DNA of 64,000 nucleotides from a virus (Duplodnaviria > Caudoviricetes): the IMG/VR virus record IMGVR_UViG_3300043414_001288, positions 12,498-76,497 of that record, one strand, 5' to 3'. The notes under the pieces are model-generated. The model saw nothing but the letters and a program-made list of their open reading frames with translations, was not told where the DNA came from and did no database searches. The first letter of the stretch is position 1. The number at the start of each line of letters is the position of its first letter. The position numbers and the translations under genes were made by a program. Shown one piece after another: positions 17 through 50,892 of this stretch.

Positions 17-757
17 TTATGAAGGGTAACGGATAATTATAACGCCATTGGTTCCGCCAAAATTACCTAAACCATTAGAAGAACCACCTAAACCAAAGTT
101 TGTTGGAGAAGAAGTGGGGTGTAGAGCACCGGCAGTGGCGCCACCACCACCACCATAAAATACTGGAGAACCAGTAAAACTATAAGATATTCCCGCACCA
201 GCGAAGTTGGGACCTGTACCACCACCAGCACCGCCACCGGCACCAGAACCAGGGGCACCCCCAGGAGCTCCTGGAAATCCAAGTCCAATAACACCAGCAC
301 CTGAACCACCACTGGCACCATATGCACCACCGCCTCCAGATGCAAGTGGCGAAGACGCTCCAGGATTGCCGGGAATTCTTCCGCCGCCACCACCACCAGT
401 AGCAGTAATTGTACCACCATTATAAGTACAAGTTGTTATTCCCCCCGGAGCACCAGTAGAAGACAAAGCACCAGGAGGACCTCCAGCACCTATAGACATT
501 GTATATGCAACGCCAGAAATAACTGGTACAAATTTTTGATAAATTGTAGCACCTCCTCCACCACCGCCAGCATCCTGTTGAGGCGCCGTCACCACTCCTC
601 CGCCACCTCCACCACCAACTAAAAGAACTTCTATAGGACCACTTCCGTTTGGAGTAAAAGTACCTGATGATGTAAAAGTATGAACAGTATAACCAGTGAT
701 ACTACTAATAGTACCACCAGTTGCCGAAGTTATTTTTGCTCCTAATAATAATGACAT
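17..757 (-). CDS. Glycine-rich virion/adhesin-like protein (paralog of 5806-6549)
   Basis: 246 aa. ATGGT...VHTFT...IEVLLVGGGGGGG N-terminal module, poly-Gly motifs and C-terminal GVIIIRYP, as in the neighbouring paralogs. CATAAATA late-type motif at 774-781. Confidence 0.7.
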   Translation of the reverse strand: MSLLLGAKITSATGGTISSITGYTVHTFTSSGTFTPNGSGPIEVLLVGGGGGGGVVTAPQQDAGGGGGGATIYQKFVPVISGVAYTMSIGAGGPPGALSSTGAPGGITTCTYNGGTITATGGGGGGRIPGNPGASSPLASGGGGAYGASGGSGAGVIGLGFPGAPGGAPGSGAGGGAGGGTGPNFAGAGISYSFTGSPVFYGGGGGATAGALHPTSSPTNFGLGGSSNGLGNFGGTNGVIIIRYPS

Positions 758-25988: not shown

Positions 25989-28900
25989 TCAAATCATTGT
26001 CTCCCTACTAAATCTATAAGTTACTAGTCCACTTACACCACTTTCTGGAGTAAACAATAATTTACACATACCAGAAGAAACTGTTGCTCCGACTGAAACT
26101 ATCAAACTTGGTTCAAACATAATTCCATATTCTTGAGAATATGCATTTGTTCCATTCTGCATCAAAAGAACCTTCTGTGCCTGAATGGAATTTGCTGACT
26201 GAACATAAATGGTATATTCTGCAGTTCTGAAATTGATAGAAGAAATTGAAAAACTGTCAATATCGGTACTTACACCAACAGAAGCTGAAAATGTTCCAAC
26301 TCCTGTTTTTACACCATATATCTCAACTTGAATTGGTGTTGTTGGATTTGTGGACCCAATACCTAAATTGCCACCAATATAAACACTGGAGTTGATACCA
26401 GAAACCTGAAGAACTTGTCCTAAAGTTCCTGTAGAAGTTCCACCACCAATGAATACTGGACCATTAGTGAATGTAGAAACACCAGAAACATTAAGTTGTT
26501 GTGCCGTTAAATCTGTTGCAGATATAATTCCTAACGTACTAATACCACTATAATTTAAGTTAGTACCAGTAATGTAAGTTATGATACCTACAGTACTATT
26601 AAAGTTTGTAATAGTACCAGCAACACCAGTAATATTGGTAATGATACCTACTGTACTATTAAAGTTTGTAATAGTACCAGCAACACCAGTAATATTGGTA
26701 ATGATACCTACAGTACTATTAAAGTTTGTAATAGTACCAGCAACACCAGTAATGTAAGTTATGATACCTACAGTACTATTAAAGTTTGTAATAGTACCAG
26801 CAACACCAGTAATATTGGTAATGATACCTACTGTACTATTAAAGTTTGTAATAGTACCAGCAACACCAGTAATATTGGTAATGATACCTACAGTACTATT
26901 AAAGTTTGTAATAGTACCAGCAACACCAGTAATGTAAGTTATGATACCTACAGTACTATTAAAGTTTGTAATAGTACCAGCAACACCAGTAATATTGGTA
27001 ATGATACCTACTGTTGCATTAAAGTTTGTAATAGTACCAGCAACACCAGTAATATTGGTAATGATACCTACAGTACTATTAAAGTTTGTAATAGTACCAG
27101 CAACACCAGTAATATTGGTAATGATACCTACTGTTGCATTAAAGTTTGTAATAGTACCAGCAACACCAGTAATATTGGTAATGATACCTACTGTTGAATT
27201 AAATGTAGTAATAGTACCAGCAACACCTGTTAGGTTTGTTATGATGCCTACAGTACTGTTGATGTTAGTGATTGTTGCTGCAACACCAGTAATATTGGTA
27301 ATGATGCCTACTGTTGAATTGAAGTTGGTGATTGTACCAGCAACACCAGTAATGTAAGTTATAACTCCTACAGTACTATTAAAGTTAGTAATAGTAGCAG
27401 CAACACCAGTAATATTGGTAATGATACCTACAGTACTATTAAAGTTTGTAATAGTAGCAGCAACACCAGTTAGGTTTGTTATGATACCTACTGTTGAATT
27501 AAAATCAGTAATAGTAGCTGCAACACCAGTAATATTGGTGATTATACCTACAGTACTATTAAAGTTTGTAATAGTAGCAGCAACACCAGTTAGGTTTGTT
27601 ATGATACCTACAGTACTGTTGATATTAGTGATTGTTGCAGCAACACCAGTAATATTAGTAATAATACCTGTTGTTGAATTAAAATCAGTAATAGTAGCAG
27701 CAACACCAGCAATGTAAGTGATGATACCTACAGTACTATTAAATGTGGTGATTGTGCCAGCAACACCAGTTAGGTTTGTTATGATACCTACAGTACTGTT
27801 GATATTAATGATTGTTGCAGCAACACCAGTAATATTGGTAATGATACCTACTGTTGAATTAAATGTAGTAATAGTACCAGCAACACCAGTTAAGTTTGTT
27901 ATAATTCCTACTGTACTATTAAAGTTTGTAATAGTACCAGCAACACCAGTAATATTGGTAATGATACCTACAGTACTATTAAAGTTTGTAATAGTACCAG
28001 CAACACCAGTAATATTGGTAATAATACCTACTGTTGAATTAAAATCAGTAATAGTACCAGCAACACCAGTAATGTAAGTTATGATACCTACAGTACTGTT
28101 GATATCAGTAAAACTACCAGTTATCGCAGTAACTTTTGTATCAGTAACTTGAACTCCACCAACAGAAAGAATAACACCAGTCGGTACAAGTGTAGAACCA
28201 ATACCAATTGCCTGATTTGTAATCCAAGCATCAGTTGTACCAACACCATAAGTACCATTTTTGACCCACATGAATTGTTTGTAGGTTTCTGGTAGGCTAT
28301 TAATTCCTGCTTTTTGTAATGGAACCAACCAAGAACCTTCAGTACTTGCAATTGCAATACCACCATGATTTGCAGTATTATCCGTGGAAATATCATTTCC
28401 AAATGCATCAGTAGTAATACCAATTACAATATCCTTATCTTTAACTTGTAATGAAGCGACAGCAAAAATTGCAGTAGTACCACCAACACTTATATTTCCA
28501 GTAATATCTAAATTACCAAAAACCGTAAAACTGTTTGAGGTCTGTAATCTATCTGCGGATACAGTACCAGCATTCAAATTTGACGCATTTTGATAAAAAG
28601 ACCCTAGTTGACTATTCAAATACTCAACATTTAAATTAGATACTAATGTAGAAGAAGCAACAGAAATTGGAGCAGTTCCATGTACTATAGTAGAATCAAA
28701 TCTAGATGCAGTTATAATACCAGAAGAATCAATATTGGTATTTGAAATATTAGTAATCGTACCAATACCAGTATAATTTAAATTAGTACCTCCAAGATTA
28801 GTAATAGTACCTACAGTACTATTAAAGTTTGTAATAGTACCAGCAACACCAGTAATATTGGTAATGATACCTACAGTACTATTAAAGTTTGTAATAGTAG

Positions 28901-31900
28901 CAGCAACACCAGTAATGTAAGTTATAACTCCTACAGTACTATTAAAGTTAGTAATAGTAGCAGCAACACCAGTAATATTGGTAATGATACCTACTGTACT
29001 ATTAAAGTTTGTAATAGTAGCAGCAACACCAGTAATGTAAGTTATAATTCCTACAGTACTATTAAAGTTTGTAATAGTAGCAGCAACACCAGTAATGTAA
29101 GTTATAACTCCTACAGTACTATTAAAGTTAGTAATAGTACCAGCAACACCAGTAATGTAAGTTATAATTCCTACTGTACTATTAAAGTTTGTAATAGTAG
29201 CAGCAACACCAGTAATATTGGTAATGATACCTACTGTTGAATTAAAATCAGTAATAGTACCAGCAACACCAGTAATGTAAGTTATAATTCCTACAGTACT
29301 ATTAAAGTTTGTAATAGTAGCAGCAACACCAGTAATATTGGTGATGATACCTACTGTTGAATTAAATGTAGTAATAGTACCAGCAACACCTGTTAGGTTT
29401 GTTATGATGCCTACTGTTGAATTAAAATCCGTAATAGTACCAGCAACACCAGTAATGTAAGTTATAATTCCTACTGTACTGTTGATGTTAGTGATTGTTG
29501 CTGCAACACCAGTAATGTAAGTTATAATACCTACAGTACTATTAAAGTTTGTAATAGTACCAGCAACACCAGTAATATTGGTGATGATACCTACTGTTGC
29601 ATTAAAGTTTGTAATAGTACCAGCAACACCAGTAATATTGGTAATGATACCTACTGTTGAATTGAAGTTGGTGATTGTACCAGCAACACCAGTAATGTAA
29701 GTTATAACTCCTACAGTACTATTAAAGTTAGTAATAGTACCAGCAACACCAGTTAGGTTTGTTATGATACCTACAGTACTATTAAGTGTTGTAGAAGTAA
29801 CAATACCACTAAACTTACCATCCCCTTGGACCCAAAGAGATGATGTTGGATTAGTGGTTCCTATACCAACTGCTATGGCATTTGGTAATATTATCTTTGC
29901 ATTATTAATTGTCGATATTCCAGTCGTAGCACCAATAGATATCGAAGTAGCAGAACCAAATCCAGAAATATTTGTTGCGTTTGTATTGAGTAATGTATAT
30001 GATGTTTGATTTGTTTGAAATAATGAAGAATTATGATTAATTGTGTTACCAAATGTAGAAACACCAGAAACATTAAGTTGTTGTGCCGTTAAATCTGTTG
30101 CTGAAGTAATTCCTAAAGTACTAATACCAGTATAATTTAAATTAGTACCAGCAATATTGGTGATTATACCTACAGTACTATTAAAGTTTGTAATAGTACC
30201 AGCAACACCAGTAATATTGGTAATGATACCTACTGTTGAATTAAAATCAGTAATAGTACCAGCAACACCAGTAATATTGGTAATGATACCTACTGTTGCA
30301 TTAAAGTTTGTAATAGTACCAGCAACACCAGTAATATTGGTAATGATACCTACTGTACTGTTGATGTTAGTGATTGTTGCTGCAACACCAGTAATGTAAG
30401 TTATAATACCTACAGTACTATTAAAGTTTGTAATAGTACCAGCAACACCAGTAATATTGGTGATGATACCTACTGTTGCATTAAAGTTTGTAATAGTACC
30501 AGCAACACCAGTAATATTGGTAATGATACCTACTGTTGAATTAAAGTTGGTGATTGTGCCAGCAACACCAGTAATATTGGTAATGATACCTACTGTTGAA
30601 TTAAATGTAGTAATAGTACCAGCAACACCAGTAATATTGGTAATGATACCTACTGTTGAATTAAAGTTGGTGATTGTGCCAGCAACACCAGTAATGTAAG
30701 TTATAACTCCTACAGTACTATTAAAGTTTGTAATAGTACCAGCAACACCAGTAATATTGGTAATGATACCTACTGTTGAATTAAAGTTGGTGATTGTACC
30801 AGCAACACCAGTAATATTGGTAATGATACCTACTGTTGAATTAAAATCAGTAATAGTACCAGCAACACCAGTAATGTAAGTTATGATACCTACAGTACTA
30901 TTAAAGTTTGTAATAGTAGCAGCAACACCAGTAATATTGGTGATGATACCTACAGTACTGTTGATATTAGTGATTGTTGCTGCAACACCAGTTAAATTTG
31001 TTATGATGCCTACAGTACTATTAAAGTTAGTGATTGTTGCTGCAACACCAGTAATATTGGTGATTATGCCTGTTGTTGCATTAAAATTAGTAATAGTACC
31101 AGCAACACCAGTTAGGTTTGTTATAATACCTACAGTACTATTAAAGTTTGTAATAGTAGCTGCAACACCAGTAATATTGGTGATGATACCTACTGTTGAA
31201 TTAAATGTAGTAATAGTACCAGCAACACCAGTAATGTAAGTTATAACTCCTACAGTACTATTAAAGTTTGTAATAGTACCAGCAACACCAGTAATATTGG
31301 TGATTATACCTACAGTACTGTTAATATTAGTGATTGTTGCAGCAACACCAGTAATATTGGTAATGATACCTACAGTACTATTAAAGTTCGTAATAGTAGC
31401 AGCAACACCAGTAATATTGGTGATGATACCTACAGTTGCATTAAAGTTAGTAATAGTACCAGCAACACCAGTAATATTGGTGATGATACCTACAGTACTA
31501 TTAAAGTTAGTAATAGTACCAGCAACACCAGTAATATTGGTGATGATACCTACAGTACTGTTGATATTAGTTATTGTTGCTGCAACACCAGTTAGGTTTG
31601 TTATGATACCTACAGTACTGTTGATATTAGTGATTGTTGCTGCAACACCAGTTAGGTTTGTTATGATGCCTACAGTACTATTAAAGTTTGTAATAGTACC
31701 AGCAACACCAGTTAGGTTTGTTATGATACCTACAGTTGCATTAAAGTTTGTAATAGTAGCTGCAACACCAGTAATATTGGTAATGATACCTACAGTACTG
31801 TTAATATTAGTGATTGTTGCAGCAACACCTGTTAGGTTTGTTATGATACCTACAGTTGCATTAAAGTTTGTAATAGTAGCTGCAACACCAGTAATATTGG

Positions 31901-32600
31901 TAATGATACCTACAGTACTATTAAAGTTAGTAATAGTACCAGCAACACCAGTAATATTGGTAATGATACCTACAGTACTATTAAAGTTAGTAATAGTAGC
32001 AGCAACACCAGTAATATTGGTGATTATACCTACAGTACTATTAAAGTTTGTAATAGTACCAGCAACACCAGTAATATTGGTGATTATACCTACAGTACTA
32101 TTAAAGTTAGTGATTGTTGCAGCAACACCAGTAATGTAAGTAATGATACCTACAGTACTGTTAATATTAGTGATTGTTGCAGCAACACCAGTAATATTGG
32201 TGATTATACCTACAGTACTATTAAGTTTGGCAGAAGTAACTATTCCACTAAACTTACCATCACCTTCAATCCAAAGTTTAGACGTTGGATTTGTGGTCCC
32301 GATACCAACCTTTCCAGCAATATAAGTATCACTATCTACCTGAAGAAGTTGCCCCGCAGTTCCTGTTGGAGTGCTATTATATGAATAATTTGAATCATTT
32401 ACACCAATAAAGACAGTTCCTGGACCAAGTGAAGTGTCACCAGTGATTTGCATACCACCAGTAACATATAATGAACTATTTCCAGCATTTGTCGTTCCAA
32501 TACCAACTTTACCAGTTACTTGAACGACTGTATTGCCTTCAGTATAAGATTTTATACCTACTTTAAGCTTAGATTGTCTGCCGCTAAGGAACTGTGTCAT
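25989..32600 (-). CDS. Giant tail fibre dominated by 19-aa repeats (T-I-T-N-F-N-S-T-V-G-I-I-T-N-I-T-G-V-A/G)
   Basis: 2203 aa with three repeat blocks and GIGTTNP fibre motifs. The C-terminal IDSF..RTAEYTIYVQ..QAQKVLLMQNG domain recalls cyanomyovirus fibre ends. Confidence 0.75.
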   Translation of the reverse strand: MTQFLSGRQSKLKVGIKSYTEGNTVVQVTGKVGIGTTNAGNSSLYVTGGMQITGDTSLGPGTVFIGVNDSNYSYNSTPTGTAGQLLQVDSDTYIAGKVGIGTTNPTSKLWIEGDGKFSGIVTSAKLNSTVGIITNITGVAATITNINSTVGIITYITGVAATITNFNSTVGIITNITGVAGTITNFNSTVGIITNITGVAATITNFNSTVGIITNITGVAGTITNFNSTVGIITNITGVAATITNFNATVGIITNLTGVAATITNINSTVGIITNITGVAATITNFNATVGIITNLTGVAGTITNFNSTVGIITNLTGVAATITNINSTVGIITNLTGVAATITNINSTVGIITNITGVAGTITNFNSTVGIITNITGVAGTITNFNATVGIITNITGVAATITNFNSTVGIITNITGVAATITNINSTVGIITNITGVAGTITNFNSTVGVITYITGVAGTITTFNSTVGIITNITGVAATITNFNSTVGIITNLTGVAGTITNFNATTGIITNITGVAATITNFNSTVGIITNLTGVAATITNINSTVGIITNITGVAATITNFNSTVGIITYITGVAGTITDFNSTVGIITNITGVAGTITNFNSTVGIITNITGVAGTITNFNSTVGVITYITGVAGTITNFNSTVGIITNITGVAGTITTFNSTVGIITNITGVAGTITNFNSTVGIITNITGVAGTITNFNATVGIITNITGVAGTITNFNSTVGIITYITGVAATITNINSTVGIITNITGVAGTITNFNATVGIITNITGVAGTITDFNSTVGIITNITGVAGTITNFNSTVGIITNIAGTNLNYTGISTLGITSATDLTAQQLNVSGVSTFGNTINHNSSLFQTNQTSYTLLNTNATNISGFGSATSISIGATTGISTINNAKIILPNAIAVGIGTTNPTSSLWVQGDGKFSGIVTSTTLNSTVGIITNLTGVAGTITNFNSTVGVITYITGVAGTITNFNSTVGIITNITGVAGTITNFNATVGIITNITGVAGTITNFNSTVGIITYITGVAATITNINSTVGIITYITGVAGTITDFNSTVGIITNLTGVAGTITTFNSTVGIITNITGVAATITNFNSTVGIITYITGVAGTITDFNSTVGIITNITGVAATITNFNSTVGIITYITGVAGTITNFNSTVGVITYITGVAATITNFNSTVGIITYITGVAATITNFNSTVGIITNITGVAATITNFNSTVGVITYITGVAATITNFNSTVGIITNITGVAGTITNFNSTVGTITNLGGTNLNYTGIGTITNISNTNIDSSGIITASRFDSTIVHGTAPISVASSTLVSNLNVEYLNSQLGSFYQNASNLNAGTVSADRLQTSNSFTVFGNLDITGNISVGGTTAIFAVASLQVKDKDIVIGITTDAFGNDISTDNTANHGGIAIASTEGSWLVPLQKAGINSLPETYKQFMWVKNGTYGVGTTDAWITNQAIGIGSTLVPTGVILSVGGVQVTDTKVTAITGSFTDINSTVGIITYITGVAGTITDFNSTVGIITNITGVAGTITNFNSTVGIITNITGVAGTITNFNSTVGIITNLTGVAGTITTFNSTVGIITNITGVAATIININSTVGIITNLTGVAGTITTFNSTVGIITYIAGVAATITDFNSTTGIITNITGVAATITNINSTVGIITNLTGVAATITNFNSTVGIITNITGVAATITDFNSTVGIITNLTGVAATITNFNSTVGIITNITGVAATITNFNSTVGVITYITGVAGTITNFNSTVGIITNITGVAATITNINSTVGIITNLTGVAGTITTFNSTVGIITNITGVAGTITNFNATVGIITNITGVAGTITNFNSTVGIITNITGVAGTITNFNATVGIITNITGVAGTITNFNSTVGIITYITGVAGTITNFNSTVGIITNITGVAGTITNFNSTVGIITNITGVAGTITNFNSTVGIITYITGVAGTITNFNSTVGIITNITGVAGTITNFNSTVGIITNITGVAGTITNFNSTVGIITYITGTNLNYSGISTLGIISATDLTAQQLNVSGVSTFTNGPVFIGGGTSTGTLGQVLQVSGINSSVYIGGNLGIGSTNPTTPIQVEIYGVKTGVGTFSASVGVSTDIDSFSISSINFRTAEYTIYVQSANSIQAQKVLLMQNGTNAYSQEYGIMFEPSLIVSVGATVSSGMCKLLFTPESGVSGLVTYRFSRETMI
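26560..28110 (-). repeat. 57-bp coding tandem repeat, block 3 (~27 units)
   Basis: Same unit as block 1. Confidence 0.9.
28790..29790 (-). repeat. 57-bp coding tandem repeat, block 2 (~17 units)
   Basis: Same unit as block 1. Confidence 0.9.
30140..32222 (-). repeat. 57-bp coding tandem repeat, block 1 (~36 units)
   Basis: Unit like GATACCTACAGTACTATTAAAGTTTGTAATAGTACCAGCAACACCAGTAATATTGGTAAT with degenerate positions. Count estimated from span/57. Confidence 0.9.
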
Positions 32601-32958: not shown

Positions 32959-35900
32959 TTAACCTCCGAGTGCGAGAATGAATGGTGTCATTGTTGAGAA
33001 CAAACTCTTAGAATAGAACCTACCAGAAATTGTTCCAGTTTGCTGATTAATTGCAACACCATCACCAATTCGGAAATTACCAGATTGATCCGTACTTGTA
33101 TAAACAACCAATCCACCATTACGACCATCAGTTTCATTATCTTGAATTGGAACTCCTCCAGTAGAAGGAAGACATTTAGCAATTTCAGTTCCAGAACCAA
33201 TATATTCAAATGAATGCCCAGATGCTAGTACTCTACTTTGTTTAAAGAAAGGAACAGCAGTTCCAACACCTAGAGCATATGGAAGATTTTCATTTACAGT
33301 AATTGTATAAACATTATTAGAAATTGGTGTAGACCTTAGAACTGAATAATAAGTGGGCAATAATTCAATTGATGCCGTTGCTGTATTTATTCCAGCATTT
33401 GGAGAAGAAATTGAAACTTTTGGAATTGAGGTATATCCTCTTCCACTCGAAATAATTTCAAATCCAGTAACTGAACCATTAACAATTGTTGCAACAGCAG
33501 TTGCCTGAACGCCCCAGTCAGTTGGTGGTGGGTCAATTGTCACAACTGGTGTAGAAATATATCCAGTTCCACCAGAACCAACAACAACTTTATTTACGGT
33601 ATAATACAAATCACCAAAATAAACAACTTGTCCATCAAATGGTCGAATTACATTAATTTTTGCTGTTCCAGTATTTGGAACATAATTATGTACTTGAGTT
33701 GCAATGCCAACATTTACTGTAAATACAGTACTTGAAGTAGAAACTTGAGGCAGTCCAATCAAATTTCCTTTTCCAACAAATGTCGTAATAATTCCAACAA
33801 GATTATCAATATTGGTTTTAACATCCGCACAAGATGCTGGGTCATTATTAGACCCAGTAAGTGGATCTACTGCTAATGTAAGATTTTTTACATTCAATTG
33901 ATTGTTGATTGCAAGTTTCGAATAATCACGAACTGCATGAAATGCTGTAATTGATTGTGCTTCTTCTCCAACCAATCCATAAGAAATTGGTACACCATCT
34001 TTTGTAAAATATGATTTTGTTGCCTCAATAATACTTTTATTTGTATATTTCTTAACATCAGAAGCAACAGCATCTACAATATATCCAATGTCTCTTTTAC
34101 ACTTTAATTGACTAGATAAGAAAGTACCATTATTTAAAGTAATATTGTTTAATGTAATGAGATTTCCAGCAGAAATTGCTTGAGTTGCAATTCCGACAAG
34201 AGTATCAATTGTATTTCTTACATTCGTACAAGAATATGGATTTGTATTTGAAGTAGTTCCAATTCCTGGATTTGGATCCGAAGTAATTGTAAAATCTTTT
34301 ACATTTAACTGATTTGTAATTGCTTTCTTGGCATAGTCACGAACACTATGAAACGCATAAACTGATTGGATTTCTTCACCATTTAATGACCCAGCTGCGG
34401 AACCAGTAAAATATTGTTTTGTAAAATTGATGATATAAGAATTACCACCAGTAAATAAATCAGTAGAGACAGCATCTACAAAATAACCCAAATCTCTTGC
34501 ACACTTATTTGTAGTTGATATTCCAAGATTTTTCGTAGGCAAAGAAGAAGTACTTGCAGAACCTATAACTGTAGTAACAATTCCAACTATTGTATTGATT
34601 GTACTCTGAACATCAGTACAAGAATTTTGATTTCCAGATGGATCTACAGAAATATTTCCTCCACCACCATAAGTAGATGGACCAGAACTAATACCAAGAT
34701 TTTTAGCATTTAATTGATTAGTAATTGCTTTCTTGGCATAATCCCTTAAAGAATTAAAAGCATAAACTGATTGTTGTCTTTCGCTTGTGCCAATTCCAAT
34801 TGGTGTAGCACCATTAAAATACTGTAGAGTAAATTCTCTTGCATAATTATTTCCACCAGTAAATACATCAGTCGCAAGTGCATCAACTAAATACCCAAGG
34901 TCTCTAGCACACTTATTTGTAGTTGTAATTCCAAGATTTATTACAGGCAAAGAAGAAGTACTTGCAGAACCTATAACTGTAGTAACAATTCCAACAAGCG
35001 TATTAATATTGCTTTGAACATCAGTACAAGAATTTTGATTTCCAGATGGATCTACAGAAATATTTCCTCCACCACCACCATAAGTAGATGGACCAGAACT
35101 AATACCAAGATTTTTAGCATTTAATTGATTAGTAATTGCTTTCTTGGCATAATCACGAACAGCATTAAAAGCATAAACTGATTGTTGTCTTTCGCTTGTA
35201 CCAATTCCAGTTGGTGTAGTACCATTAAAATACTGTAAAGTAAATCCTCTCGAATATGCATTACCACCAGTAAATACATCAGTCGAAAGTGAATCTACCA
35301 AATAACCCAAATCTCTAGCACATTTAGTTCCACCTGTTGTAAAATTTCCAAGATTTGTTACTGGTAATGATGAAGTATTTCCGGCACCAATCGTAACAGT
35401 TACAATTCCAACAAGTGTATTAATATTTTCTTGAACATCAGTACAAGCAGTTATATCAGTATTTAAAACTGAATGAACTCCTTGCCCGTATCGAATAGGT
35501 CCACTACTAATTCCAACTTCTTTATATGTAAGTTGATTGGTAATCGCAGAAGTTATTCCAACTCTTACTTGTCTAAAAGCATAAACTGATTGAATTTCTT
35601 CACCAAGCAATCCATTTGAAATTGGATTTCCAGCCCCATCAAAGTATTGAAGAGCAAATTGTTTTACATAATTATTTCCACCGGTAAATACATCCGCAGA
35701 AACTGCATCAATAAAAAATCCTAAATCTCTTTTACATTTAGATTGTGTAGAAGAAATTCCAGGATAAGCATTTGCTGTTGCTGTCCAAGCAATTCCAATA
35801 ATTTCATCTTTATTGTTTTGTATTAAACGATAAGCATCATAATATCTTGAACGAGAATTTGTTCTCGCATCTCCTGGAAAATAAAATGTAGAAAATCCAA

Positions 35901-37458
35901 CAGCAATTGTTGCAAGTGATTTGTCAATAATTTCTTGCTTATTGATTTGTATCAAACGAGAAGCATCATAATATCTTGAACGAGAATTTGTTTGAGTTTC
36001 CCCAGGAAAATAAAAACCAGAAGGAAATCCAACAGCAATTGAAGCAAGTGATTTATCTATAAGTTCTTGTTTATTGATTTGTATCAAACGAGAAGCATCA
36101 TAATAACGATTTTGATTATAAGGAACAGGGTCACTGGGAAATCTAAATGCTGACGGAAATCCAACAGCAATCGAAGCAAGTGATTTGTCTATAATTTCTT
36201 GCTTGTTTTGTTGAATTAAACGATAAGAATCTTTATAACGATAAGAAGCATCACTTGTAGAATCACCAGGAAAGATAAAATCTGGATAATTAATCGCAAT
36301 TGATGCAAGAGATTTATCAACAATTTCTGTTTTATTTGCGGCAATTAAATTCCCAGCATCTACATATCTTCCGGGAGCAACTGTTTTAACTTCAAAGATA
36401 TAACCATTTTTTCCATTAGGATAATATCTAGTTCCTGGTTCATAAGAACAAGTAAATCCAAGACCAGAAAGAGTAATACCCATTCCAACTGAAAAGTTAT
36501 GTGGAACAGAGGTGTAAGCTTTTAAAATTCCTGTTGTATTATCATATGAGGCATTTGTAATATTTAAAGTTGGTACACTCAAATCTAATACAAAAGTATC
36601 AGCATTTGACTCGGCAGCATATGTAACTATTCCAGTATATTTAAGTGGCCCAACACCTTCAGCAACTAATCCATAATTCCCAAATGATGAGTTGGAGTTT
36701 GTTAAATCGCAAGCAGACCCACCTCCACAATATACTGCAACATCATCACAAATCGTAAAGAGAGAAACCAACTGAGCATATCCCTCATTTGTCATCGAGG
36801 CACCGACACCCCCTTGATTATATTGAGTATAACTATCAAGAACCATCGACTTTAATGGTCCAAGTGCGATATCTCCATCGACTTTCAAACCAATACTATT
36901 CGGAATGAAATTTGTACAGTTTTGAGTATATGGAGAATGTTCAATATATCTTTGATTGATTGGATCAAATGCAACTACTGCATTTCCATTAAAGGATGGT
37001 CCAACAAAAGACATTTGTGCGATATAACAACCAGAACCAACATGAAAAAGGTCAGTATCAAGATTTTGTGGTTGAACTGATACTTCTCTTAAACTATCTC
37101 CAATAACACCTACAGTATCGGGAAGTACGATTGGATTATTCTCTATATAATTTCCAGCACTAACCTTAATAACAGTTCCTGCTGTTGCTTCTGCAATTGC
37201 TCCTCTGATTGTTGCTTTTGCGTCTCCGAGTTTTCTTCCTGTGTTTGTGTCTTTTCCATCTTTTGTGACATATAAAATATTTGTAACTTTAATTCCTGCA
37301 CCTAATCTAATAATATCTGTGCCAATTCCAGACCTTTCTCTTTTAGCAAAAAGATCTGCATCATAAGTATTAAGTGCTAATTCTCCTAAATTAATATCTG
37401 CTACTGTTGGTTCTTTTCCAGGTACAGCAGATCTTTTTATCCTGATAGGTGTGGACAT
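32959..37458 (-). CDS. Tailspike/fibre-like virion protein with a pectin-lyase-like beta-helix and five inserted phycobiliprotein-like units
   Basis: 1499 aa. N-terminal IRIKRS..GELALN fibre attachment motif and ILYVTKDG..AKATIRGAI..VIKVSAGNY beta-helix start. Five KC(A/K)RD(L/I)G(Y/F) units. C-terminal ASGHSFEY.GSG is shared with the 2042-aa protein. Confidence 0.7.
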   Translation of the reverse strand: MSTPIRIKRSAVPGKEPTVADINLGELALNTYDADLFAKRERSGIGTDIIRLGAGIKVTNILYVTKDGKDTNTGRKLGDAKATIRGAIAEATAGTVIKVSAGNYIENNPIVLPDTVGVIGDSLREVSVQPQNLDTDLFHVGSGCYIAQMSFVGPSFNGNAVVAFDPINQRYIEHSPYTQNCTNFIPNSIGLKVDGDIALGPLKSMVLDSYTQYNQGGVGASMTNEGYAQLVSLFTICDDVAVYCGGGSACDLTNSNSSFGNYGLVAEGVGPLKYTGIVTYAAESNADTFVLDLSVPTLNITNASYDNTTGILKAYTSVPHNFSVGMGITLSGLGFTCSYEPGTRYYPNGKNGYIFEVKTVAPGRYVDAGNLIAANKTEIVDKSLASIAINYPDFIFPGDSTSDASYRYKDSYRLIQQNKQEIIDKSLASIAVGFPSAFRFPSDPVPYNQNRYYDASRLIQINKQELIDKSLASIAVGFPSGFYFPGETQTNSRSRYYDASRLIQINKQEIIDKSLATIAVGFSTFYFPGDARTNSRSRYYDAYRLIQNNKDEIIGIAWTATANAYPGISSTQSKCKRDLGFFIDAVSADVFTGGNNYVKQFALQYFDGAGNPISNGLLGEEIQSVYAFRQVRVGITSAITNQLTYKEVGISSGPIRYGQGVHSVLNTDITACTDVQENINTLVGIVTVTIGAGNTSSLPVTNLGNFTTGGTKCARDLGYLVDSLSTDVFTGGNAYSRGFTLQYFNGTTPTGIGTSERQQSVYAFNAVRDYAKKAITNQLNAKNLGISSGPSTYGGGGGNISVDPSGNQNSCTDVQSNINTLVGIVTTVIGSASTSSLPVINLGITTTNKCARDLGYLVDALATDVFTGGNNYAREFTLQYFNGATPIGIGTSERQQSVYAFNSLRDYAKKAITNQLNAKNLGISSGPSTYGGGGNISVDPSGNQNSCTDVQSTINTIVGIVTTVIGSASTSSLPTKNLGISTTNKCARDLGYFVDAVSTDLFTGGNSYIINFTKQYFTGSAAGSLNGEEIQSVYAFHSVRDYAKKAITNQLNVKDFTITSDPNPGIGTTSNTNPYSCTNVRNTIDTLVGIATQAISAGNLITLNNITLNNGTFLSSQLKCKRDIGYIVDAVASDVKKYTNKSIIEATKSYFTKDGVPISYGLVGEEAQSITAFHAVRDYSKLAINNQLNVKNLTLAVDPLTGSNNDPASCADVKTNIDNLVGIITTFVGKGNLIGLPQVSTSSTVFTVNVGIATQVHNYVPNTGTAKINVIRPFDGQVVYFGDLYYTVNKVVVGSGGTGYISTPVVTIDPPPTDWGVQATAVATIVNGSVTGFEIISSGRGYTSIPKVSISSPNAGINTATASIELLPTYYSVLRSTPISNNVYTITVNENLPYALGVGTAVPFFKQSRVLASGHSFEYIGSGTEIAKCLPSTGGVPIQDNETDGRNGGLVVYTSTDQSGNFRIGDGVAINQQTGTISGRFYSKSLFSTMTPFILALGG

Positions 37459-37755: not shown

Positions 37756-38079
37756 TTAGGATTGTTGTTCTTGGGTCTTTTTCATAATCTCATCAAACTT
37801 TTCATTCATCCAAGTTTCTTCATTTTCATTCCATTTTTTTACAGGGCAACTATCCAGAGCAAATGATACTTTAGAAGGAAGAAAGCATCCACAATGTTTA
37901 CATCTGGTTTGAGCATCATCATACCATTCACAAGTTTTACAAGTTTCCAATCTTTGTGCTTGCACTTCAGCAGAAACTATAAGTGCTCCACCTTGAAGTG
38001 CATTTTTAATCAAATCAAAGCTAAACTTTGCTAGGTTCTTTCCTTGTTCAGGTAAAGAAGGATATTGAGTTTCAGTCAT
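37756..38079 (-). CDS. Small Cys-rich (putative metal-binding) protein
   Basis: 107 aa with RLETCKTCEW..RCKHCGCFLPSK....SCPVKKW. Confidence 0.65.
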   Translation of the reverse strand: MTETQYPSLPEQGKNLAKFSFDLIKNALQGGALIVSAEVQAQRLETCKTCEWYDDAQTRCKHCGCFLPSKVSFALDSCPVKKWNENEETWMNEKFDEIMKKTQEQQS

Positions 38080-40328: not shown

Positions 40329-43300
40329 TTACTTATATTGTGATTGTGAAGCAAATACTGAATATGCAGCAGAACCTGTTTTTATAATTACATAAGTGTA
40401 CAAATCTACACTACTTACATTTCCACCAACTGGAAGAACTTCACCATACCATTTTGGAGTTACAGAACTTCCATCAATTGTGATTGCTGTATTATAATAT
40501 GCAGTTGTTCCTTGTGTCGCAAGAATAGCAACAGTAATGGACTCACCGGTTGTGAGGAAATTATTTAAAGGAGTACCCCCATTTCCACGGAAATTAAGTG
40601 TCCAAGTTCCAGTTGTATCTGAAGTAAAATAATGAACATTATTTGTAATCAAATCAATATTTACAGATCCACTAAGTGGTGTAGCATTTAAACTTACACC
40701 TTCAGTCATTCCAACAACTTTTAATGAAGAAGTAATTCTATTTGCCGTAAAGTTTCCAGAGGCATCACGAGCAACAATTGTTGATGAAGTATTTGCATCT
40801 GTAGCGTCAACATTTATTTGTCTTGCTGTTCCACCTGTATAAGCAGAACCAACAGCAAAAGATAAATGAGTACCTAGAGTTAAATCTGCAAGAGTATTTC
40901 CAAGAGAAATACCAGAAATCGTAGGAGTTGCTAGATTTGCATTTGTAATTCCAGCAGTTCCAGAAAGATTTGCATTTGTCAATCCACTAATCGTATTATA
41001 AGTAGTAGAAATTGTTTTATTTTTAAATATATCTGAAGTTTCTTTTGCAACTAATGTATCAGTTGTAGCAGGTAATGTAAGAATACCAGAAGCAACAGCA
41101 GATGCTCTTACTGTTGTAATTCCAGAAGTAGAACCAGTAAATCCTGCACCTATAGTACCACCAAATGTTGCTGTTGTAATTCCTGTTGCTGTTAAATTTC
41201 GAGATTGAATATCACCACTAATGGTAACATTACCATTAGAAGTTAGATTTCCGACATCTAATGTTCCAGCAAATGTAGAAATTCCACCATAAGTTGATTT
41301 AAATAATCCATCTAAAGTCACTTTTACTGATGAAATAAATGTAGCTGCAATACCAGTAACTTCTAAATTATAAAGTTGCGAAATTCCTTGTGTGTGTTTT
41401 TGTGTATAAGAAGATGTTATACCACCACCAGGAGGTGGTGTTCCGGGAAATGTTGCAGTTCCATAAATGTTAATGCCATCAAATGAAAGGTTTGAAAATG
41501 TTTGTTGTGCAGGAAAGGTTATACTTTCAGTAACAACAATAGATTTAAACTTTGAAGTTCCATTTACTTCTAATGGATTTGTTCCATCAAAAGTTGTAGT
41601 AGTTTGACCAATACCCAACTTATCAATTCGAATATATGTACTATTTGTTTCTCTACTAACTAATCCAAATCGTTTCCAATCTCCATCTGCATAAGTATAT
41701 CCCAAATATCCACCAGTTTGAGGAGTAGCAAGTAATGAAATATCACCAGAACGAACACCAGGAATATCAGAAGAAGTTGGTGTAGAAATTCCAACTGTAA
41801 TTAACTTTGCTTGTGCTGTAGAACCTTTAACAAATAAATTCTTTACTTCAAGACCAGCATTAGATGTACTTGTTACTTTTTGTGTAAAATTAACTGGACC
41901 ATAGAATTGTGATGTTTGATTGTTATTTTCTCCACCTTCAATCGTAAGCCTATCTCTTACAACCAAGTCATCAAACACACCACTCAATCTCTTTGTACTA
42001 TCAGTATTTGCGTCATCTCCAGTATATGTAAATACTGGAGCATCAAATACTTCCTCTTCACCAGTTACAGAAGTAAGTTTTTTTGCACCAGAATAAAATT
42101 CGCCAAGGTCGTTCATTCCAGAATAAACAATAGTTCCACCATCCTGCTCTCTTGCCTGGGAAACAATTATTTCATCTGTGGAAAGAATTCTATCTTGCTT
42201 TTGAGGCATACCAGTTGAATAGTTTCCTGGACCATATCCAAGATATTCGAAAGTATGACCAGAAGCACGAAGATATGATGGACGGTGAAATTGAATTGGT
42301 ATTACACGAACTTTTTTTACAAGTGTTCCATTATCTGCCGGTGCAGATACTGTACCCAGTTGTCCTCTAAGAACTGTCGTACAAGCATCATTTGCAATAC
42401 GAAGAATTTCTGAATTTATTTGTATAAAATCACCCTTTCTAAATCCACCAACACTTGTAATACTAATTGATGTCGATGAAGATGTTAGAGCACTTGAAAG
42501 TGTAGTACTTATTCCAGCATAGATATAAGAAATTCTTCCTCCAAGATTTAATTCACCTTCTCCAATTGCAAGAGCATTTGCCGAAAATTCTTGTCTTAAT
42601 ACAGAACCACCACCAGTATATGTTTTTGTTGCTGAAACCTTTCCAACATTAAATGTAAATGTCGTTAAACCAACAACCTGATTTACTACAAATGAACTAT
42701 CGTAGATAGTATGACCAGTTCCAGTAATTGTAAACTTATTTCCTACAAGTAATCCATGAGAATTTGAAGTTGTAACTGTTGCAATTCCTGTCTGAACACT
42801 TGAGAAATCTAATGAAGTAATTGTATTTCCTTTCGCAGTAACTGCTATAATTGGAACTAAACTATCAGTTCTATTAATAAATTGTCCGACATTATTTGAA
42901 TTATAAACAGTAATCGATTTTGGTCCAGGAATACCAGTAATTTTAAATGTTCCATTATACTTATCACTCGAAACACCAATCACTTGAACTGCATCACCAA
43001 TATTGCTATTAATTGCAGTAACTTGTACTGTTGCAAGTGATGTTCCACCAACAACACTCATCGTATTTCCTACACCATAAGCACTACCACCATCAACAAT
43101 ACTTATGACATTTACAGAACCAGCACTAAGAGTTGCTTTTACTGCTGCACCAGTTCCAGCAGTAGTTCCAGGAACAAGAGAAGCTGAATAAAGTGTAGTT
43201 GAACCATATCCAGAACCACCAGAAGTAAGGCTCAATGTTTTGATTGAATTTAAGTTATGTTCCCTATCAGTATAAAATGTAATATCAGTTCCACTTACGG

Positions 43301-46300
43301 AAGCACCAGTAATTCCAAAACCAATTGTATTTTCTAATATAAAAGAATTTAGTGCTTCTTTTGTGACAGAATTTCTTTTATCGTTAGATGTAATTTTTCC
43401 AAGTGGATCTACATTAGCATATGATATTGTTGCGTCTGGATCTGAATTATAATTATCTCTATCCATTTGTGGATAAAGATTACGAACATCTTGATTATAA
43501 TTCTTTAAACTAATTCCATAACCAACATTTGCAAGTGCTGGAGACACATTTGATGTCATCACAGTCAAATGATAAATTCCATCTTGTCCAGTTGTTGCAG
43601 AACCAGGAATATGTTGTCGGATTTCATCAATTCTGTAAATAAAATAAGAATCTTTATATCTTTCTCTACTTACAGTTGGTAATGCATTTACTTGTTGAGA
43701 TGTGTCTCTTTGATTTATATTATTAGTAAATGTGCCTGGATCTATAGAAATATCAGAAATAGTAAAAGTTTTAGAACTTGGAATAGATGCAATATTAAAA
43801 GAACCATTAAAAACAGAAGATGCCGCACCAGAAATATTATTTGTACTTGTAACATTCTGTATTTTTACAGTATCTCCTATAATAAAATTATGTGGAAGTT
43901 CAGTTGTAATTGTAATTACATTTCCGCCATAAGATGCATTTGTAATAATTTTTGGATTTTTAAGTTGAATTGAGTTTGAAATATCCCCAGAAATAACTCC
44001 AGGACTATCAATTGTTGTTGTACTTGATTCTTGAATAATAAATCCAGCAACAGGAGGACGAGCATTTGTTGCTTCTTTTGGAATTACATATCTAAGCTTA
44101 TAAATACGATCTGTCAAAGAACGATTATCAAGTTTTCTTTTGATAAATGTAGTACTTGTTTCATCACCTAACGCAGTTGTTCCAAGTCCTACGATAGCCG
44201 TATAAATTTGATTTGTAGCATCTAAAGAACTATTAATATACCAACTACCTTGTACTGAATCATACTGAACTGGATGTGCCAATTCTCCAGGTTGTTTATC
44301 TATCGCAGAACTTATAACTGTAAGATTTCCACCAAGATTATTAACTCCGGTTATTGTTCTTGGAGTTGCTGCAATTGCATCACTATATGTTGGTGATAAT
44401 TTAATCTTATTTGAAGATGAATTATACACATAATAAACTTTATTTAATTCAATATTACTTGGTGATTCGGCATTATCACTAAATATTCTAACTTTTTCTC
44501 CATTATAAAATTTATGATCTACCGTTAATGTGAAAGTATCATTAGTAATACTATTAATGCCAGCAGTTCTTCCAACCTTGGAAATTTTATTTGCACTAAA
44601 GGTAGTTCCATCCGGTGATTGCATCAAAATTGGAGCACTATAAGAAGTAAGTGCTGTTCCAGCAGTTACAGTTAAATATAATGAATCGTTTTGTCTTGCA
44701 CCAATTCTATAACTATCCACTTGGTGTGGAGGAATAATATCTTTATTTTTATAAGAATAAAGATAAAGTCGAGAAGGATTTGCATTATTAATTATTTGAT
44801 TTGTATCTAATGACAACCAACCAACTTCTGTCTCATCTGTAGTAATTTCTCTTGGAGGAATAATGTGTGTAACATATCCAGAATTATCCCTATCAAACGA
44901 TTCTTTACGAAAACCAATTGATTCTAATGAAACTGCACCAAAGTTGGAATTTGAATTAGTGATAGACATATCTCCACCACTTTCTGCAACAAAGTGTCTT
45001 GCAAAACCAATCGCAAAAATCGAAACACACTGAATAAAAGCACCATTAGTTACTTTAATGTGATAGTTTTCATACGATGGTTTATAAATCGAACCAGAAT
45101 AAGTATGTAATGGTGAATTTGAAGATTCATCATTATTTTTAAATGATTTGCTTGTCGCATTATAATCAATAAAAGCATTATCATCTTTTTGAAGTGAAAT
45201 GCCGGTAAATTGAGAAACAACCATAGATTTAAATCCGGTTGCTCTATTTCCATCAGCAAACATTCCACATAATCCATAAACAGATCTTAAGGAACAATTG
45301 AAAATATAAGGGGAAGCAGAGGATACACTATCTGCTTCTACAATAACTTGAGAATTTTGTATTTGAACGTCAGAAGGAAGAGCAACTACAGGAGTACTTA
45401 TTGAACTATAAGTAAAAGTAGTAAGTCCTACAACTTCTCTAACTGTAAAAGATCCATTATAAGAAGTTGTATCGATACCAACTCCACTAACAAGAATTGG
45501 AGTATCAACATAAAGTCCATGATTTCTATTTGTAGTTACTGTAATTATTGGAGATGGAGCATTTCCATCTCCAGAAAAAATACTTGTAATTCCAAGAGAA
45601 TTTGCGTTTAAATTTCCAACAATTCGATATTCATCAACAGATGGTTCAAAATCTACACCAGTTGGATAATCAGCAAGAGGTCTTCCAGATGCAGTACCAT
45701 AAACTAATGATATTTTATTATAATACATCTGAAGATCTGTTAGACCAGTTTCAGTAGTTCCTAATTTAACTTGATTAATACCATCAGCATAAACAAATGA
45801 TGTTAATTTATGATGAGAAAAGTTTGGAACATGAGAAGTATTATTATAATTTTTATAAACACTTCGATTTGGATCTGCATCTAAAAATGTAAAGGCAGTA
45901 AAGTAACAAGTACCAGTTACATTAAAAATAGATGAATTTACAATATAATCATCTAAAGGATCTGGGACATAAAGCGGGCGAATTTTTGTCTTTCTTAAAT
46001 CTAAACCAATAATAGATGTGCCACGGGGCATAATAACCCCACCATCTACTGAATTTAGTTTATATAAATCATTATTAATATCATTCAAATCGGTATTATA
46101 AGAAGAACCTAATTCTGTAATTGTTGCTCCAGAGGTAGTCCAAGTTGCTCCAGAACCTGATCCTGTTCTTTTCTTTAATGTTGCCGAGGTATTAATTGAA
46201 AAACCAGGACGATTATCAATATAATGTGTGCCTGGATATACAAGAATTGTTGTTCTATCGATCTTATCGTTATTTCTTCCTACTTGATATGAAAATCTTG

Positions 46301-50436: not shown

Positions 50437-50892
50437 CTAGGGTGTAGAAGGCCATTCTGGGTTTTTTGGATCATTCGTATTTTCAGGAAGATCTCTCAAT
50501 GCTTGACGATAAACTGCCCATTCTTGTTTTTTTTGTTTAGTGATTGGACTATCAGAAAGTTGCGTCCAATCACATTCTATCAATTTACGATTTCTTTCAT
50601 TACGAAATTCCTTCCAATAATCTCTTGATGCTTCTCTTAATTCTTCTTCTGCCAATTGTTCTCTAAATCTTCTTTGTTTTTCTGCATCAAATATCTCTAA
50701 TGCTTGTTCGTAAATTCCAAGTTCATTAATCACTTCACTTGGTGTATTCTTATATTCTATTCTACCTACAGTATCATTCCAAATGACTGCATGAACATTG
50801 GAAGGAACCCAAGATAGGTCTTCCTGTATATTCCCAAAAGTTTCATCATTCAATCTAATGTATTTTTCTGATACGATAAATGCTAATTTCAT
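50437..50892 (-). CDS. Phage tail (fibre) assembly chaperone
   Basis: C-terminal RNERNRKLIECDWTQLSDSP...WAVYRQALRDLPE....NPEWPSTP, a typical tail assembly chaperone signature. Confidence 0.8.
   Translation of the reverse strand: MKLAFIVSEKYIRLNDETFGNIQEDLSWVPSNVHAVIWNDTVGRIEYKNTPSEVINELGIYEQALEIFDAEKQRRFREQLAEEELREASRDYWKEFRNERNRKLIECDWTQLSDSPITKQKKQEWAVYRQALRDLPENTNDPKNPEWPSTP

Follow-up and report, generated by a model that had tools for sequence, protein, structure and literature searches.

Phycobiliproteins, phage bilin genes and tail fibres

Phycobiliprotein (PBP) beta subunits (CpeB, CpcB and cryptophyte beta chains; PF00502) are free-standing proteins of 17-20 kDa with a core of helices E, F, G and H, one cysteine on helix E and another where helix H begins, at its N-cap. 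The units described here share the helix-E cysteine and, as predicted, the core and the placement of the second cysteine. Unlike beta subunits, they have no X-Y hairpin, are arranged in tandem within a 1499-aa protein, have residues 93 and 97 replaced and show weak sequence similarity (E 0.017). Their best sequence relative is the alpha chain of C-phycocyanin (CpcA), with which they share K-C-x-R-D-[IL]-G-Y and the Gly-Gly spacing at the end of helix E, in the same register. However, alpha chains have no second cysteine site and overlay less well, and the remaining unit is less than 20% identical. The bilin-binding domain of ApcE, the core-membrane linker, is likewise a PBP-fold domain inside a large multidomain protein (Z 7.4-7.9). 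As ApcE needs no lyase for bilin attachment, it offers a precedent for the helix-E site. It differs from the units in having one PBP domain with a loop insertion and its cysteine elsewhere, and in being intracellular, as part of the phycobilisome.

The phage lineages that carry the units also encode the T-type lyase homologue PhiCpeT and the bilin genes ho1, pebS and pcyA. At present, the products of these genes are taken to act on the antenna proteins of the host. In work by Gasper and colleagues from 2017, PhiCpeT reportedly bound phycoerythrobilin tightly, with no transfer to host CpeB. We found no proposal in the literature for a phage-encoded PhiCpeT substrate and no paper describing phycobiliprotein-like fibre units, and we know of no report of pigmented cyanophage particles. 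The protein may also resemble phage tailspikes and fibres: its N-terminal ~270 residues are modelled as a beta-helix, and its PHROG families are fibre families. Tailspikes are not known to carry globin-like helical arrays, whereas here the putative N-terminal beta-helix is followed by ~870 residues of helical repeats.

A cyanophage fibre gene with five helical units

The ORF list and translation of the window (the whole 64-kb stretch of DNA analysed) place the gene for this tail-fibre-like protein of a marine cyanobacterial virus at 32959..37458 on the minus strand (stop codon 32959-32961), the strand of all features below. The protein matched phrog_4527 'short tail fiber protein' (E 1e-227), phrog_17885 'tail fiber protein' (E 5e-177) and phrog_5342. 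Its surroundings are a series of giant baseplate/fibre genes, every one on the minus strand, and genes for a gp5-like hub, a tail fibre and a tail assembly chaperone are among those nearby. Family match and location in a baseplate-fibre block, both at the level of genes, agree with membership in the fibre/virion proteins of T4-like cyanophages, and the product is predicted to be a fibre/spike protein of a T4-like cyanomyovirus.

Residues 1-361 (36376..37458) comprise a conserved fibre N-terminus and then a putative right-handed beta-helix (residues ~60-270). This region was modelled by AlphaFold2 with 13 homologues (mean pLDDT 65; 80-93 across residues 80-200). Among the Foldseek matches listed (E 4e-4 to 5e-2, TM 0.2-0.3), most were proteins with a right-handed beta-helix, namely PL6 alginate lyases, pectin methylesterases and phage tailspikes. 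We assign the fold with moderate confidence to the tailspike/polysaccharide-lyase type, in line with the initial annotation of the product as a phage tailspike. Four short ~44-aa helical repeats follow (residues 362-533; 35860..36375), found by motif scan of the translation. They are of the type R-Y-x-D-x-x-R-L-I-Q-x-N-K-x-E-I-I, contain no Cys and resemble only the first helix of the full unit. Because these four shorter repeats stand before the units, the first full unit had rightly been called the fifth helical unit.

The five full units (~137 aa each) were delimited by motif regex on the translation and by a unit HMM, which found five domains spanning residues 530-1233 and matched no other ORF of the 64-kb window. 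All five contain the motif KCxRD[LI]G[YF] and, in addition, a second Cys. Unit 1 (residues 534-671; 35446..35859) reads KCKRDLGF, with Cys575 at codon 35734-35736. KCARDLGY occurs three times, in unit 2 (residues 672-810; 35029..35445; Cys713, codon 35320-35322), unit 3 (residues 811-946; 34621..35028; Cys850, codon 34909-34911) and unit 4 (residues 947-1076; 34231..34620; Cys986, codon 34501-34503). Unit 5 (residues 1077-1209; 33832..34230) has KCKRDIGY, with Cys1120 at codon 34099-34101. The second Cys lies in [AS]C[TA][DN]V[QRK] at residues 672, 811, 947, 1077 and 1210, so that the KC cysteines equal the following SC cysteines in number (five each). Cys672 stands at the start of unit 2 and opens the closing helix of unit 1; Cys811, Cys947 and Cys1077 begin units 3, 4 and 5, and Cys1210 opens the closing helix of unit 5 (residues 1210-1233; 33760..33831; motif regex). 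The five Cys codons first listed for these motifs (35734, 35320, 34909, 34501, 34099), four of them in further units with KCARDLGY or KCKRDIGY, were all recovered exactly, as was a second Cys opening the last helix of each unit. The C-terminal domain (residues 1234-1499; 32962..33759) matches phrog_17885 (positions 727-1001 of 1002) and phrog_3442, is common to other cyanophage fibre proteins (19 distinct homologous C-termini in IMG/VR loci) and is probably a distal or assembly domain.

Since the five copies were born by duplication, chance has to be judged by something other than their recurrence inside the gene. We judged it by profile statistics against real phycobiliproteins and by residue conservation in a set of 524 distinct units, taken from 120 homologues and aligned in 165 columns. 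The first Cys (99.0%), Arg (98.7%), Asp (99.2%) and second Cys (99.4%) are all among the eight best-conserved columns. Tyr76, Asp60, Asn111 and Ala108 (unit columns) are as conserved as the Cys/Arg/Asp triad. As many unit-specific residues match the triad in this way, strong conservation is not peculiar to bilin-site residues. In the few units without the first Cys, Arg and Asp are mostly gone too and the second Cys is retained (about two independent events).

Relatedness of the units to phycobiliproteins

The whole protein scored above the curated cut-off of Pfam PF00502 (29.1 vs 22.2 bits, E 1.1e-6), a score that sums repeated weak stretches. Unit 1 alone gave 15.6 bits (E 0.017, profile positions 26-107), below the Pfam threshold, and units 2-5 of the window, searched singly, had no match to PF00502. 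In a larger set, 24 of 85 units matched PF00502 individually at E <= 0.1, and no other Pfam family was matched by more than one unit. A unit profile searched against the PDB returned C-phycocyanin alpha chains as its top 31 matches (best E 1.3e-4), with unit helix B on helix E and Cys on Cys84. The unit triad, present in all five window units, aligns to CpcA Cys84, Arg86 and Asp87, and the register is gap-free from the Cys to the Gly-Gly 19 residues further on. Comparison by hhalign was strong against alpha PBPs (Prob 90.7, E 1.3e-6) and weak against beta chains alone (E 0.017); a permissive run placed the second Cys on the Cys of the second bilin site, with low column confidence. Significant sequence similarity is limited to about 45-65 residues, and PBP interface positions are replaced in the in-register alignment (Arg93 by Asp, Tyr97 by Thr/Ser).

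We predicted the structure of residues 665-832 (unit 2 region) with AlphaFold (pLDDT 80.4, pTM 0.75; helices at model residues 9-28, 46-66, 70-77, 90-111 and 148-167). Foldseek searches with this model returned PBPs at nearly all top ranks, with weak E values (0.5-5); the globin-like sensor domains of RsbR and pXO2-61 and the bilin domain of ApcE were also near the top of the structural matches. The model superimposed on PBP beta subunits with Z 9.0-10.0 (2.2-2.6 A over ~100 residues) and less well on alpha chains (Z 6.4-7.2). The structural alignment pairs 43..166 of the model with 76..177 of the beta subunit. Their range ends bring C49 to position 82 and C147 to position 158 of phycoerythrin beta, which is not a residue-level overlay. 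Core helices E, F, G and H are thus predicted in the PBP arrangement, with a single helix before helix E in the ~137-aa unit in place of the X-Y hairpin. The hairpin and the interface residues Asp13, Arg93 and Tyr97, required for PBP dimers and rings, are not retained.

The initial annotation had seen phycobiliprotein-like units whose first Cys corresponds to alpha-84/beta-82 and whose second Cys, before the last helix, occupies the second-bilin position of beta subunits. Pfam, PDB profile, hhalign and AlphaFold overlay agree on the relationship. The first Cys falls on CpcA Cys84 by alignment and on 82 by overlay, and the second on 158 by aligned ranges, with which the permissive hhalign run concurs. 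Common ancestry of the units with PBPs is therefore well supported by profiles and models. Our analyses likewise give good support to reading the five fibre modules as distant relatives of host light-harvesting pigment proteins, in which both pigment-attachment cysteines appear to be kept.

Distribution of the units and cpeT among cyanophages

All phage records with units were cyanophages (239/239), and the arrays, located in giant fibre/baseplate proteins, held between 2 and about 35 matched stretches. CpeT is encoded in 11 of 13 unit-bearing cyanomyovirus lineages and in none of the 3 without units. Units are also present in each of eight additional genomes that encode CpeT, which brings the total to 19 of 19 CpeT-encoding cyanomyovirus genomes tested. 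The cpeT gene lies 1.5-4 kb upstream of the unit gene in S-PM2, Syn1, S-RSM4, S-CAM1/3/4, S-RIM32/44 and others, and P-HM1/2 have ho1, pebS, cpeT and units. Units without CpeT are common (for example S-ShM2 and P-SSM7), with 239 unit-bearing records vs 113 records with CpeT by tblastn. P-SSM2 has ho1 and pebS and no units, and S-PM2 has units and cpeT and no ho1 or pebS; possession of units and bilin synthesis by the phage are therefore not coupled. A search for cpeT, pebS and ho1 in the window's own record (36% complete) found none of them; cpeT is missing even from the stretch that corresponds by synteny to its site in S-PM2, which the record does cover.

A marker tree leaves only 1-2 phylogenetically independent unit/CpeT contrasts, which makes the naive Fisher p (0.018 to 0.005) invalid as a test. 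The co-occurrence of the units with the T-type lyase gene cpeT, and their frequent adjacency, give circumstantial support for bilin attachment.

Possible roles of the units

We propose that the fibre shaft, which follows the beta-helix and the four short helical repeats, consists of five tandem modules descended from the globin-like PBP fold. Each module would keep the E-F-G-H core and have lost the X-Y hairpin that makes PBP alpha-beta dimers and rings. Its closing H-like helix, second Cys first, appears to serve the following module as its N-terminal helix. On helix E, the bilin-site triad would be kept (Cys, Arg and Asp as PBP 84/86/87), and the second Cys, at the helix-H N-cap, would correspond to the site served by T-type lyases in beta subunits. 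Late in infection, bilins from host or phage ho1/pebS/pcyA would join these cysteines by thioether bonds. The phage's own CpeT, where encoded, would load the second site, and host lyases or autocatalysis the helix-E site, so that virions would be released with a bilin-loaded fibre. We put the probability that the sites are still used and that bilin is attached to the units at roughly 45%.

A serious rival, which we regard as quite possible, is that an ancient captured fragment of a host PBP gene serves as a rigid helical spacer without bilin, its cysteines forming disulfides after lysis or filling another structural role, and its Arg and Asp forming salt bridges. The long arrays in giant fibre/baseplate proteins suit shaft building blocks, conservation is strong over the entire unit and beyond the triad, many unit-bearing phages have no CpeT, and the helices and residues for the usual PBP assembly are lost. 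The pairing of one KC Cys with each following SC Cys suits post-lysis disulfides, as does the helix order, from which helices E and H are probably parallel and both Cys may share one end of the bundle. Against this, the beta-subunit overlay puts the two Cys on beta-82 and beta-158. In PBPs, these two positions each hold a bilin of their own, in different pockets, with no bond between them. A disulfide between a unit's two Cys is thus disfavoured if that overlay is right. It would also leave unexplained the joint loss of Arg and Asp with the first Cys, in units that retain the second, and the co-occurrence and adjacency of cpeT. An improbable reading is that the pocket inherited from PBPs does not take up a bilin but, for example, a metal ion, a different tetrapyrrole or a ligand on the host surface, making the units receptor-binding or other sensing domains. 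Polar residues that PBPs do not share are conserved (Asp60, Asn66, Glu90 and Asn111, unit columns) and could form such a site, and the best structural matches include the sensor domains of RsbR and pXO2-61. Yet the retained residues are precisely the PBP bilin ligands, both Cys stand at bilin-attachment positions, and the translation has no His- or Cys-rich metal motif.

That a bundle of four or five helices came by convergence, without common ancestry, to a helix-E motif like that of PBPs seems very improbable. The significant similarity is short, and unrelated helical bundles can attain Z 9-10. However, three different profile methods single out PBPs alone, the register is gap-free up to the Gly-Gly, the structural match spans helices E to H and keeps the two Cys in register, and the domain is restricted to viruses of PBP-making hosts. 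A bilin sink or phycobilisome-docking decoy within the infected cell, also raised in the initial annotation, is hardly credible. The units are PBP-derived and cyanophages are known to manipulate phycobilisomes, as with viral NblA (PMC12695635). But the N- and C-terminal domains and PHROG families are those of fibres, and the X-Y helices and interface residues for pairing with PBP partners are missing; the decoy in particular is unlikely for an extracellular fibre protein in which Arg93 and Tyr97 have become Asp and Thr/Ser.

Light-dependent adsorption and implications

For a bilin-loaded fibre, the most plausible use would be photoreception that gates adsorption. P-HM1/2 and S-PM2, whose published phenotype is a failure to adsorb in the dark, carry units; P-SSM2 and P-SSP7, which are published as adsorbing in darkness, have none. 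In S-PM2, the light effect on adsorption is independent of host photosynthesis (PMC6628666). This match between unit presence and dark-adsorption phenotype gives circumstantial support, in a correlation that depends on about four independent phages. We consider light-gated adsorption through a bilin-loaded fibre unlikely on present evidence. The fuller picture is equally speculative: cyanomyovirus particles would be photoreceptive, with CpeT-loaded bilin arrays on PBP-derived fibre modules that light brings to an adsorption-competent state.

Two observations are new here, the co-occurrence of units and CpeT in cyanomyoviruses and the comparison of unit presence with the dark-adsorption phenotype. 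If the proposal is true, CpeT loading of the helix-H Cys would explain the presence of cpeT, ho1 and pebS in phages of Prochlorococcus, a host without phycobilisomes, and a light-absorbing fibre that switches state would account for light-dependent adsorption. As both pigment-attachment cysteines appear to be kept, virion pigment and light sensing are now testable.

Five helical units in a tail-fibre-like protein

The whole finding lies within one open reading frame (32959..37458, minus strand), encoding a 1499-aa protein whose PHROG families are tail-fibre families. A regular-expression search of its translation recovered the paired cysteine motifs from which the initial annotation had proposed phycobiliprotein-like units. 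The motif KCxRD[LI]G[YF] places a Cys at residues 575, 713, 850, 986, and 1120 (codon starts 35734, 35320, 34909, 34501, and 34099), and [AS]C[TA][DN]V[QRK] places a second Cys at residues 672, 811, 947, 1077, and 1210. The five ~137-aa units share 40-83% pairwise identity. Ahead of them are four ~44-aa repeats (35860-36375, minus strand) that resemble the first helix of the unit only and lack both cysteines; they look like partial units that either seeded the array or are its decayed remnants. Window-wide, the unit HMM detected no units in other ORFs.

For the N-terminal 361 residues, the structure model shows, at moderate confidence, a right-handed beta-helix like those of lyases and tailspikes, so the earlier label "tailspike" is fair for this part and does not suit the rest of the protein. 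The neighbouring genes all lie on the same strand; among them are giant virion, baseplate, and fibre genes, a tail-fibre assembly chaperone, and a gp5-like hub. The chaperone domain (PF16778, E 9e-23; 50437-50892, minus strand) adjoins a long-tail-fibre-like gene, and a small DUF6171 ORF (37756-38079, minus strand) lies immediately upstream of the gene studied. A neighbouring 2042-aa tail-fibre gene (phrog_529; 40329-46457, minus strand) lacks the phycobiliprotein-like unit and has phrog_4527 in common with the gene studied, via a different region. Two giant ORFs on the minus strand, at 8810-16945 (2711 aa) and 25989-32600 (2203 aa), could be assigned to few or no families and contain zero units. 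Beside the baseplate hub, large proteins encoded at 60011-62182 and 62182-63990 (both minus strand) carry metallo-endopeptidase and endolysin-like domains and are probably virion-associated cell-wall hydrolases.

Relationship of the units to phycobiliproteins

Searched with the phycobilisome family PF00502, the whole protein scored 29.1 bits (cut-off 22.2), and the best single unit of the window scored 15.6 bits. Of 85 units, drawn from the window and from 50 IMG/VR loci and scanned singly, 24 matched PF00502, and any other family was matched at most once. The top 31 PDB-sequence matches of a profile built from these 85 units were C-phycocyanin alpha chains (best E 1.3e-4); the profile was required, because phmmer with the whole protein against PDB sequences returned noise only. 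Unit positions 4-68 align to CpcA 37-103, with the Cys on Cys84, the Arg on Arg86, and the Asp on Asp87, a triad on helix E. Profile comparison by hhalign gave Prob 83.5 and E 8.4e-6 against six phycobiliprotein sequences taken from cyanobacterial plasmids, and Prob 90.7 and E 1.3e-6 against the alpha chains alone.

AlphaFold2 modelled unit 2 and its flanking helices with pLDDT 80.4 and pTM 0.75. The top Foldseek ranks for this model were almost exclusively phycobiliproteins, with weak E-values (0.5-5), and a feature search of the ESM Atlas gave zero usable matches. In VIA comparison with representative structures, the top rows included a globin-like RsbR domain (Z 9.4), phycoerythrin beta (Z 8.9), and ApcE and allophycocyanin domains. 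Closer VIA comparison gave Z 9.0-10.0 at 2.2-2.6 A over ~100 residues for beta subunits (model 43..166 on chain 76..177) and Z 6.4-7.2 for alpha subunits, values of a size that helical bundles can attain by chance. The case for ancestry was therefore put on the agreement of sequence and predicted structure. With PF00502, the unit profile, hhalign, and the predicted fold concurring, the units and phycobiliproteins very probably share a common ancestor.

The ends of the VIA ranges place the first and second Cys of the model (C49 and C147) on residues 82 and 158 of phycoerythrin beta, presuming gap-free first turns of helix E and a gap-free helix H. These residues are its two singly linked bilin sites. 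Permissive hhalign against beta chains likewise aligned the second Cys with its beta-153-type counterpart, at low column confidence, so the proposed mapping of the cysteines to bilin positions is supported, tentatively for the second. On helix E, the units carry a sequence motif of the alpha type, whereas their overall shape and second site match beta subunits. Phycobiliproteins need positions 93 and 97 for alpha-beta pairing, but the units have Asp and Thr/Ser there and lack the X-Y hairpin. They cannot be ordinary antenna subunits.

Conservation and distribution of the units

Both cysteines are kept in 79 of 80 distinct units from IMG/VR loci. In a wider set (524 distinct units, 120 homologues, 165 columns), conservation reaches 99.0% for the first Cys, 98.7% for the Arg, 99.2% for the Asp, and 99.4% for the second Cys, placing all four within the best eight of the 165 columns. 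Other, unit-specific residues are equally conserved, which cautions against over-reading these values. The first Cys is lost in four units, in about two independent events, and there the Arg and Asp are mostly gone too while the flanking second-site Cys is retained. These losses hint that the triad may act as one unit and that the two cysteines may not form an obligatory pair.

Units were found by tblastn in 239 phage records, every one a cyanophage (S-PM2, S-RSM4, Syn1, and S-CAM1 among them). A nucleotide search of the phage collection with the gene (megablast) returned zero matches, so a protein-level search was required. An exhaustive profile search of cluster representatives found units in at least 1217 clusters at 50% identity, most of the representatives being giant proteins in which as many as ~35 stretches match. 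A narrow scan pattern applied to 185,579 species genomes (GTDB) gave only seven matches, all on metagenome-bin contigs (Saprospiraceae, Verrucomicrobiales, Rhodobacteraceae, Planctomycetaceae, and others), one of them a 194-kb contig in a Synechococcus bin. These are probably cyanophage contigs mis-binned into bacterial genomes, and this narrow pattern thus revealed no cellular counterpart of the unit among the 185,579 genomes.

Our literature search found no paper describing a phycobiliprotein-like domain in cyanophage structural proteins; automated Pfam labels are already present on homologues in JGI data. In the S-PM2 RefSeq record (NC_006820.1, 165928-177267), an 11-kb CDS labelled "short tail fiber protein" bears a tRNA-style locus tag and encloses 16 tRNA features. 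Its frame nevertheless stays open for 3792 aa, and the tRNA coordinates look misplaced.

Co-occurrence with cpeT and bilin-synthesis genes

We compared complete genomes for units (unit profile A2) and CpeT (PF06206), counting P-HM1 and P-HM2 as one lineage of 16. Both were present in 11 lineages (P-HM1/2, S-PM2, S-SM1, P-RSM4, Syn33, Syn19, Syn1, S-SSM5, P-SSM4, Syn9, and S-RSM4), units without CpeT in two (S-ShM2 and P-SSM7), CpeT without units in none, and neither in three (P-SSM2, S-SM2, and S-SSM7); a PF00502 search of these last three also gave zero matches. Eight further genomes picked for encoding CpeT all carried units. Naive one-sided Fisher tests gave p = 0.018 over the 16 lineages and, with the eight added genomes (24 in all), 0.005. 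On a marker tree just 1-2 unit/cpeT contrasts are independent, too few pairs for significance in a phylogenetically controlled test, and the co-occurrence is therefore a lead, not proof.

In many Synechococcus phages, cpeT lies 1.5-4 kb upstream of the unit gene; in the Syn9/P-SSM4 type, it is ~50 kb away. P-HM1/2 carry ho1, pebS, cpeT, and units together. Bilin-synthesis genes are not strictly tied to the units, since ho1 and pebS occur in P-SSM2, which lacks units, and S-PM2 carries units but neither ho1 nor pebS. The 76-kb IMG/VR record containing the window encodes no detected CpeT, bilin reductase, or heme oxygenase, which says little because it is 36% complete. The small ORFs that separate the gene studied from the gp5-like hub likewise yielded no lyase. 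A tail-protein tree places S-SSM7 and P-SSM2 as the nearest cultured relatives of this phage. Both lack units, which means recent gain or loss of units within the large-genome group, of which another member, ACG-2014f, has both units and cpeT.

Possible roles of the units

To our knowledge, light-dependent adsorption of cyanophages has stood for decades without a molecular explanation. In the dark, P-HM2 and P-HM1 fail to adsorb, whereas P-SSP7 adsorbs and P-SSM2 does so too, though with some loss relative to light; the light dependence of S-PM2 is independent of host photosynthesis (PMC6628666). P-HM2 and P-HM1 each encode five units and S-PM2 nine, and the P-SSM2 and P-SSP7 genomes have none, which amounts to about four independent data points, each agreeing with the prediction.

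We interpret the units as phycobiliprotein-derived shaft modules that putatively still bind bilin (probability about 0.45). Light-gated adsorption is a possible, less probable use of such a bilin. The chief competing reading, somewhat less probable than bilin binding, is that the module is purely structural and its cysteines serve stability. It is consistent with the fibre context, the lost pairing positions, and the equal conservation of other residues; the probable placement of both cysteines on bilin positions and the retention of the second Cys where the first is lost fit it less readily. Binding of another ligand is a lesser candidate. An intracellular decoy or sink is likewise a minor alternative, at odds with the fibre families of the protein and the lost pairing positions. 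Convergence with phycobiliproteins could account for the Z values, and it would also have to produce the alpha-chain profile matches; we consider it similarly minor.

The domain occurs in fibres, often beside cpeT, and in the phages that do not adsorb in the dark. As a phycobiliprotein derivative that apparently keeps the two sites of bilin attachment, it suggests one testable hypothesis both for light-dependent adsorption and for the unsettled roles of cpeT, ho1, and pebS in Prochlorococcus phages. With bilin bound, the protein would be the first virion structural protein to bear a chromophore, and some "auxiliary metabolic genes" would be recast as virion-maturation genes. Without it, the units would still be a clear example of a host antenna protein put to new use in building a fibre.
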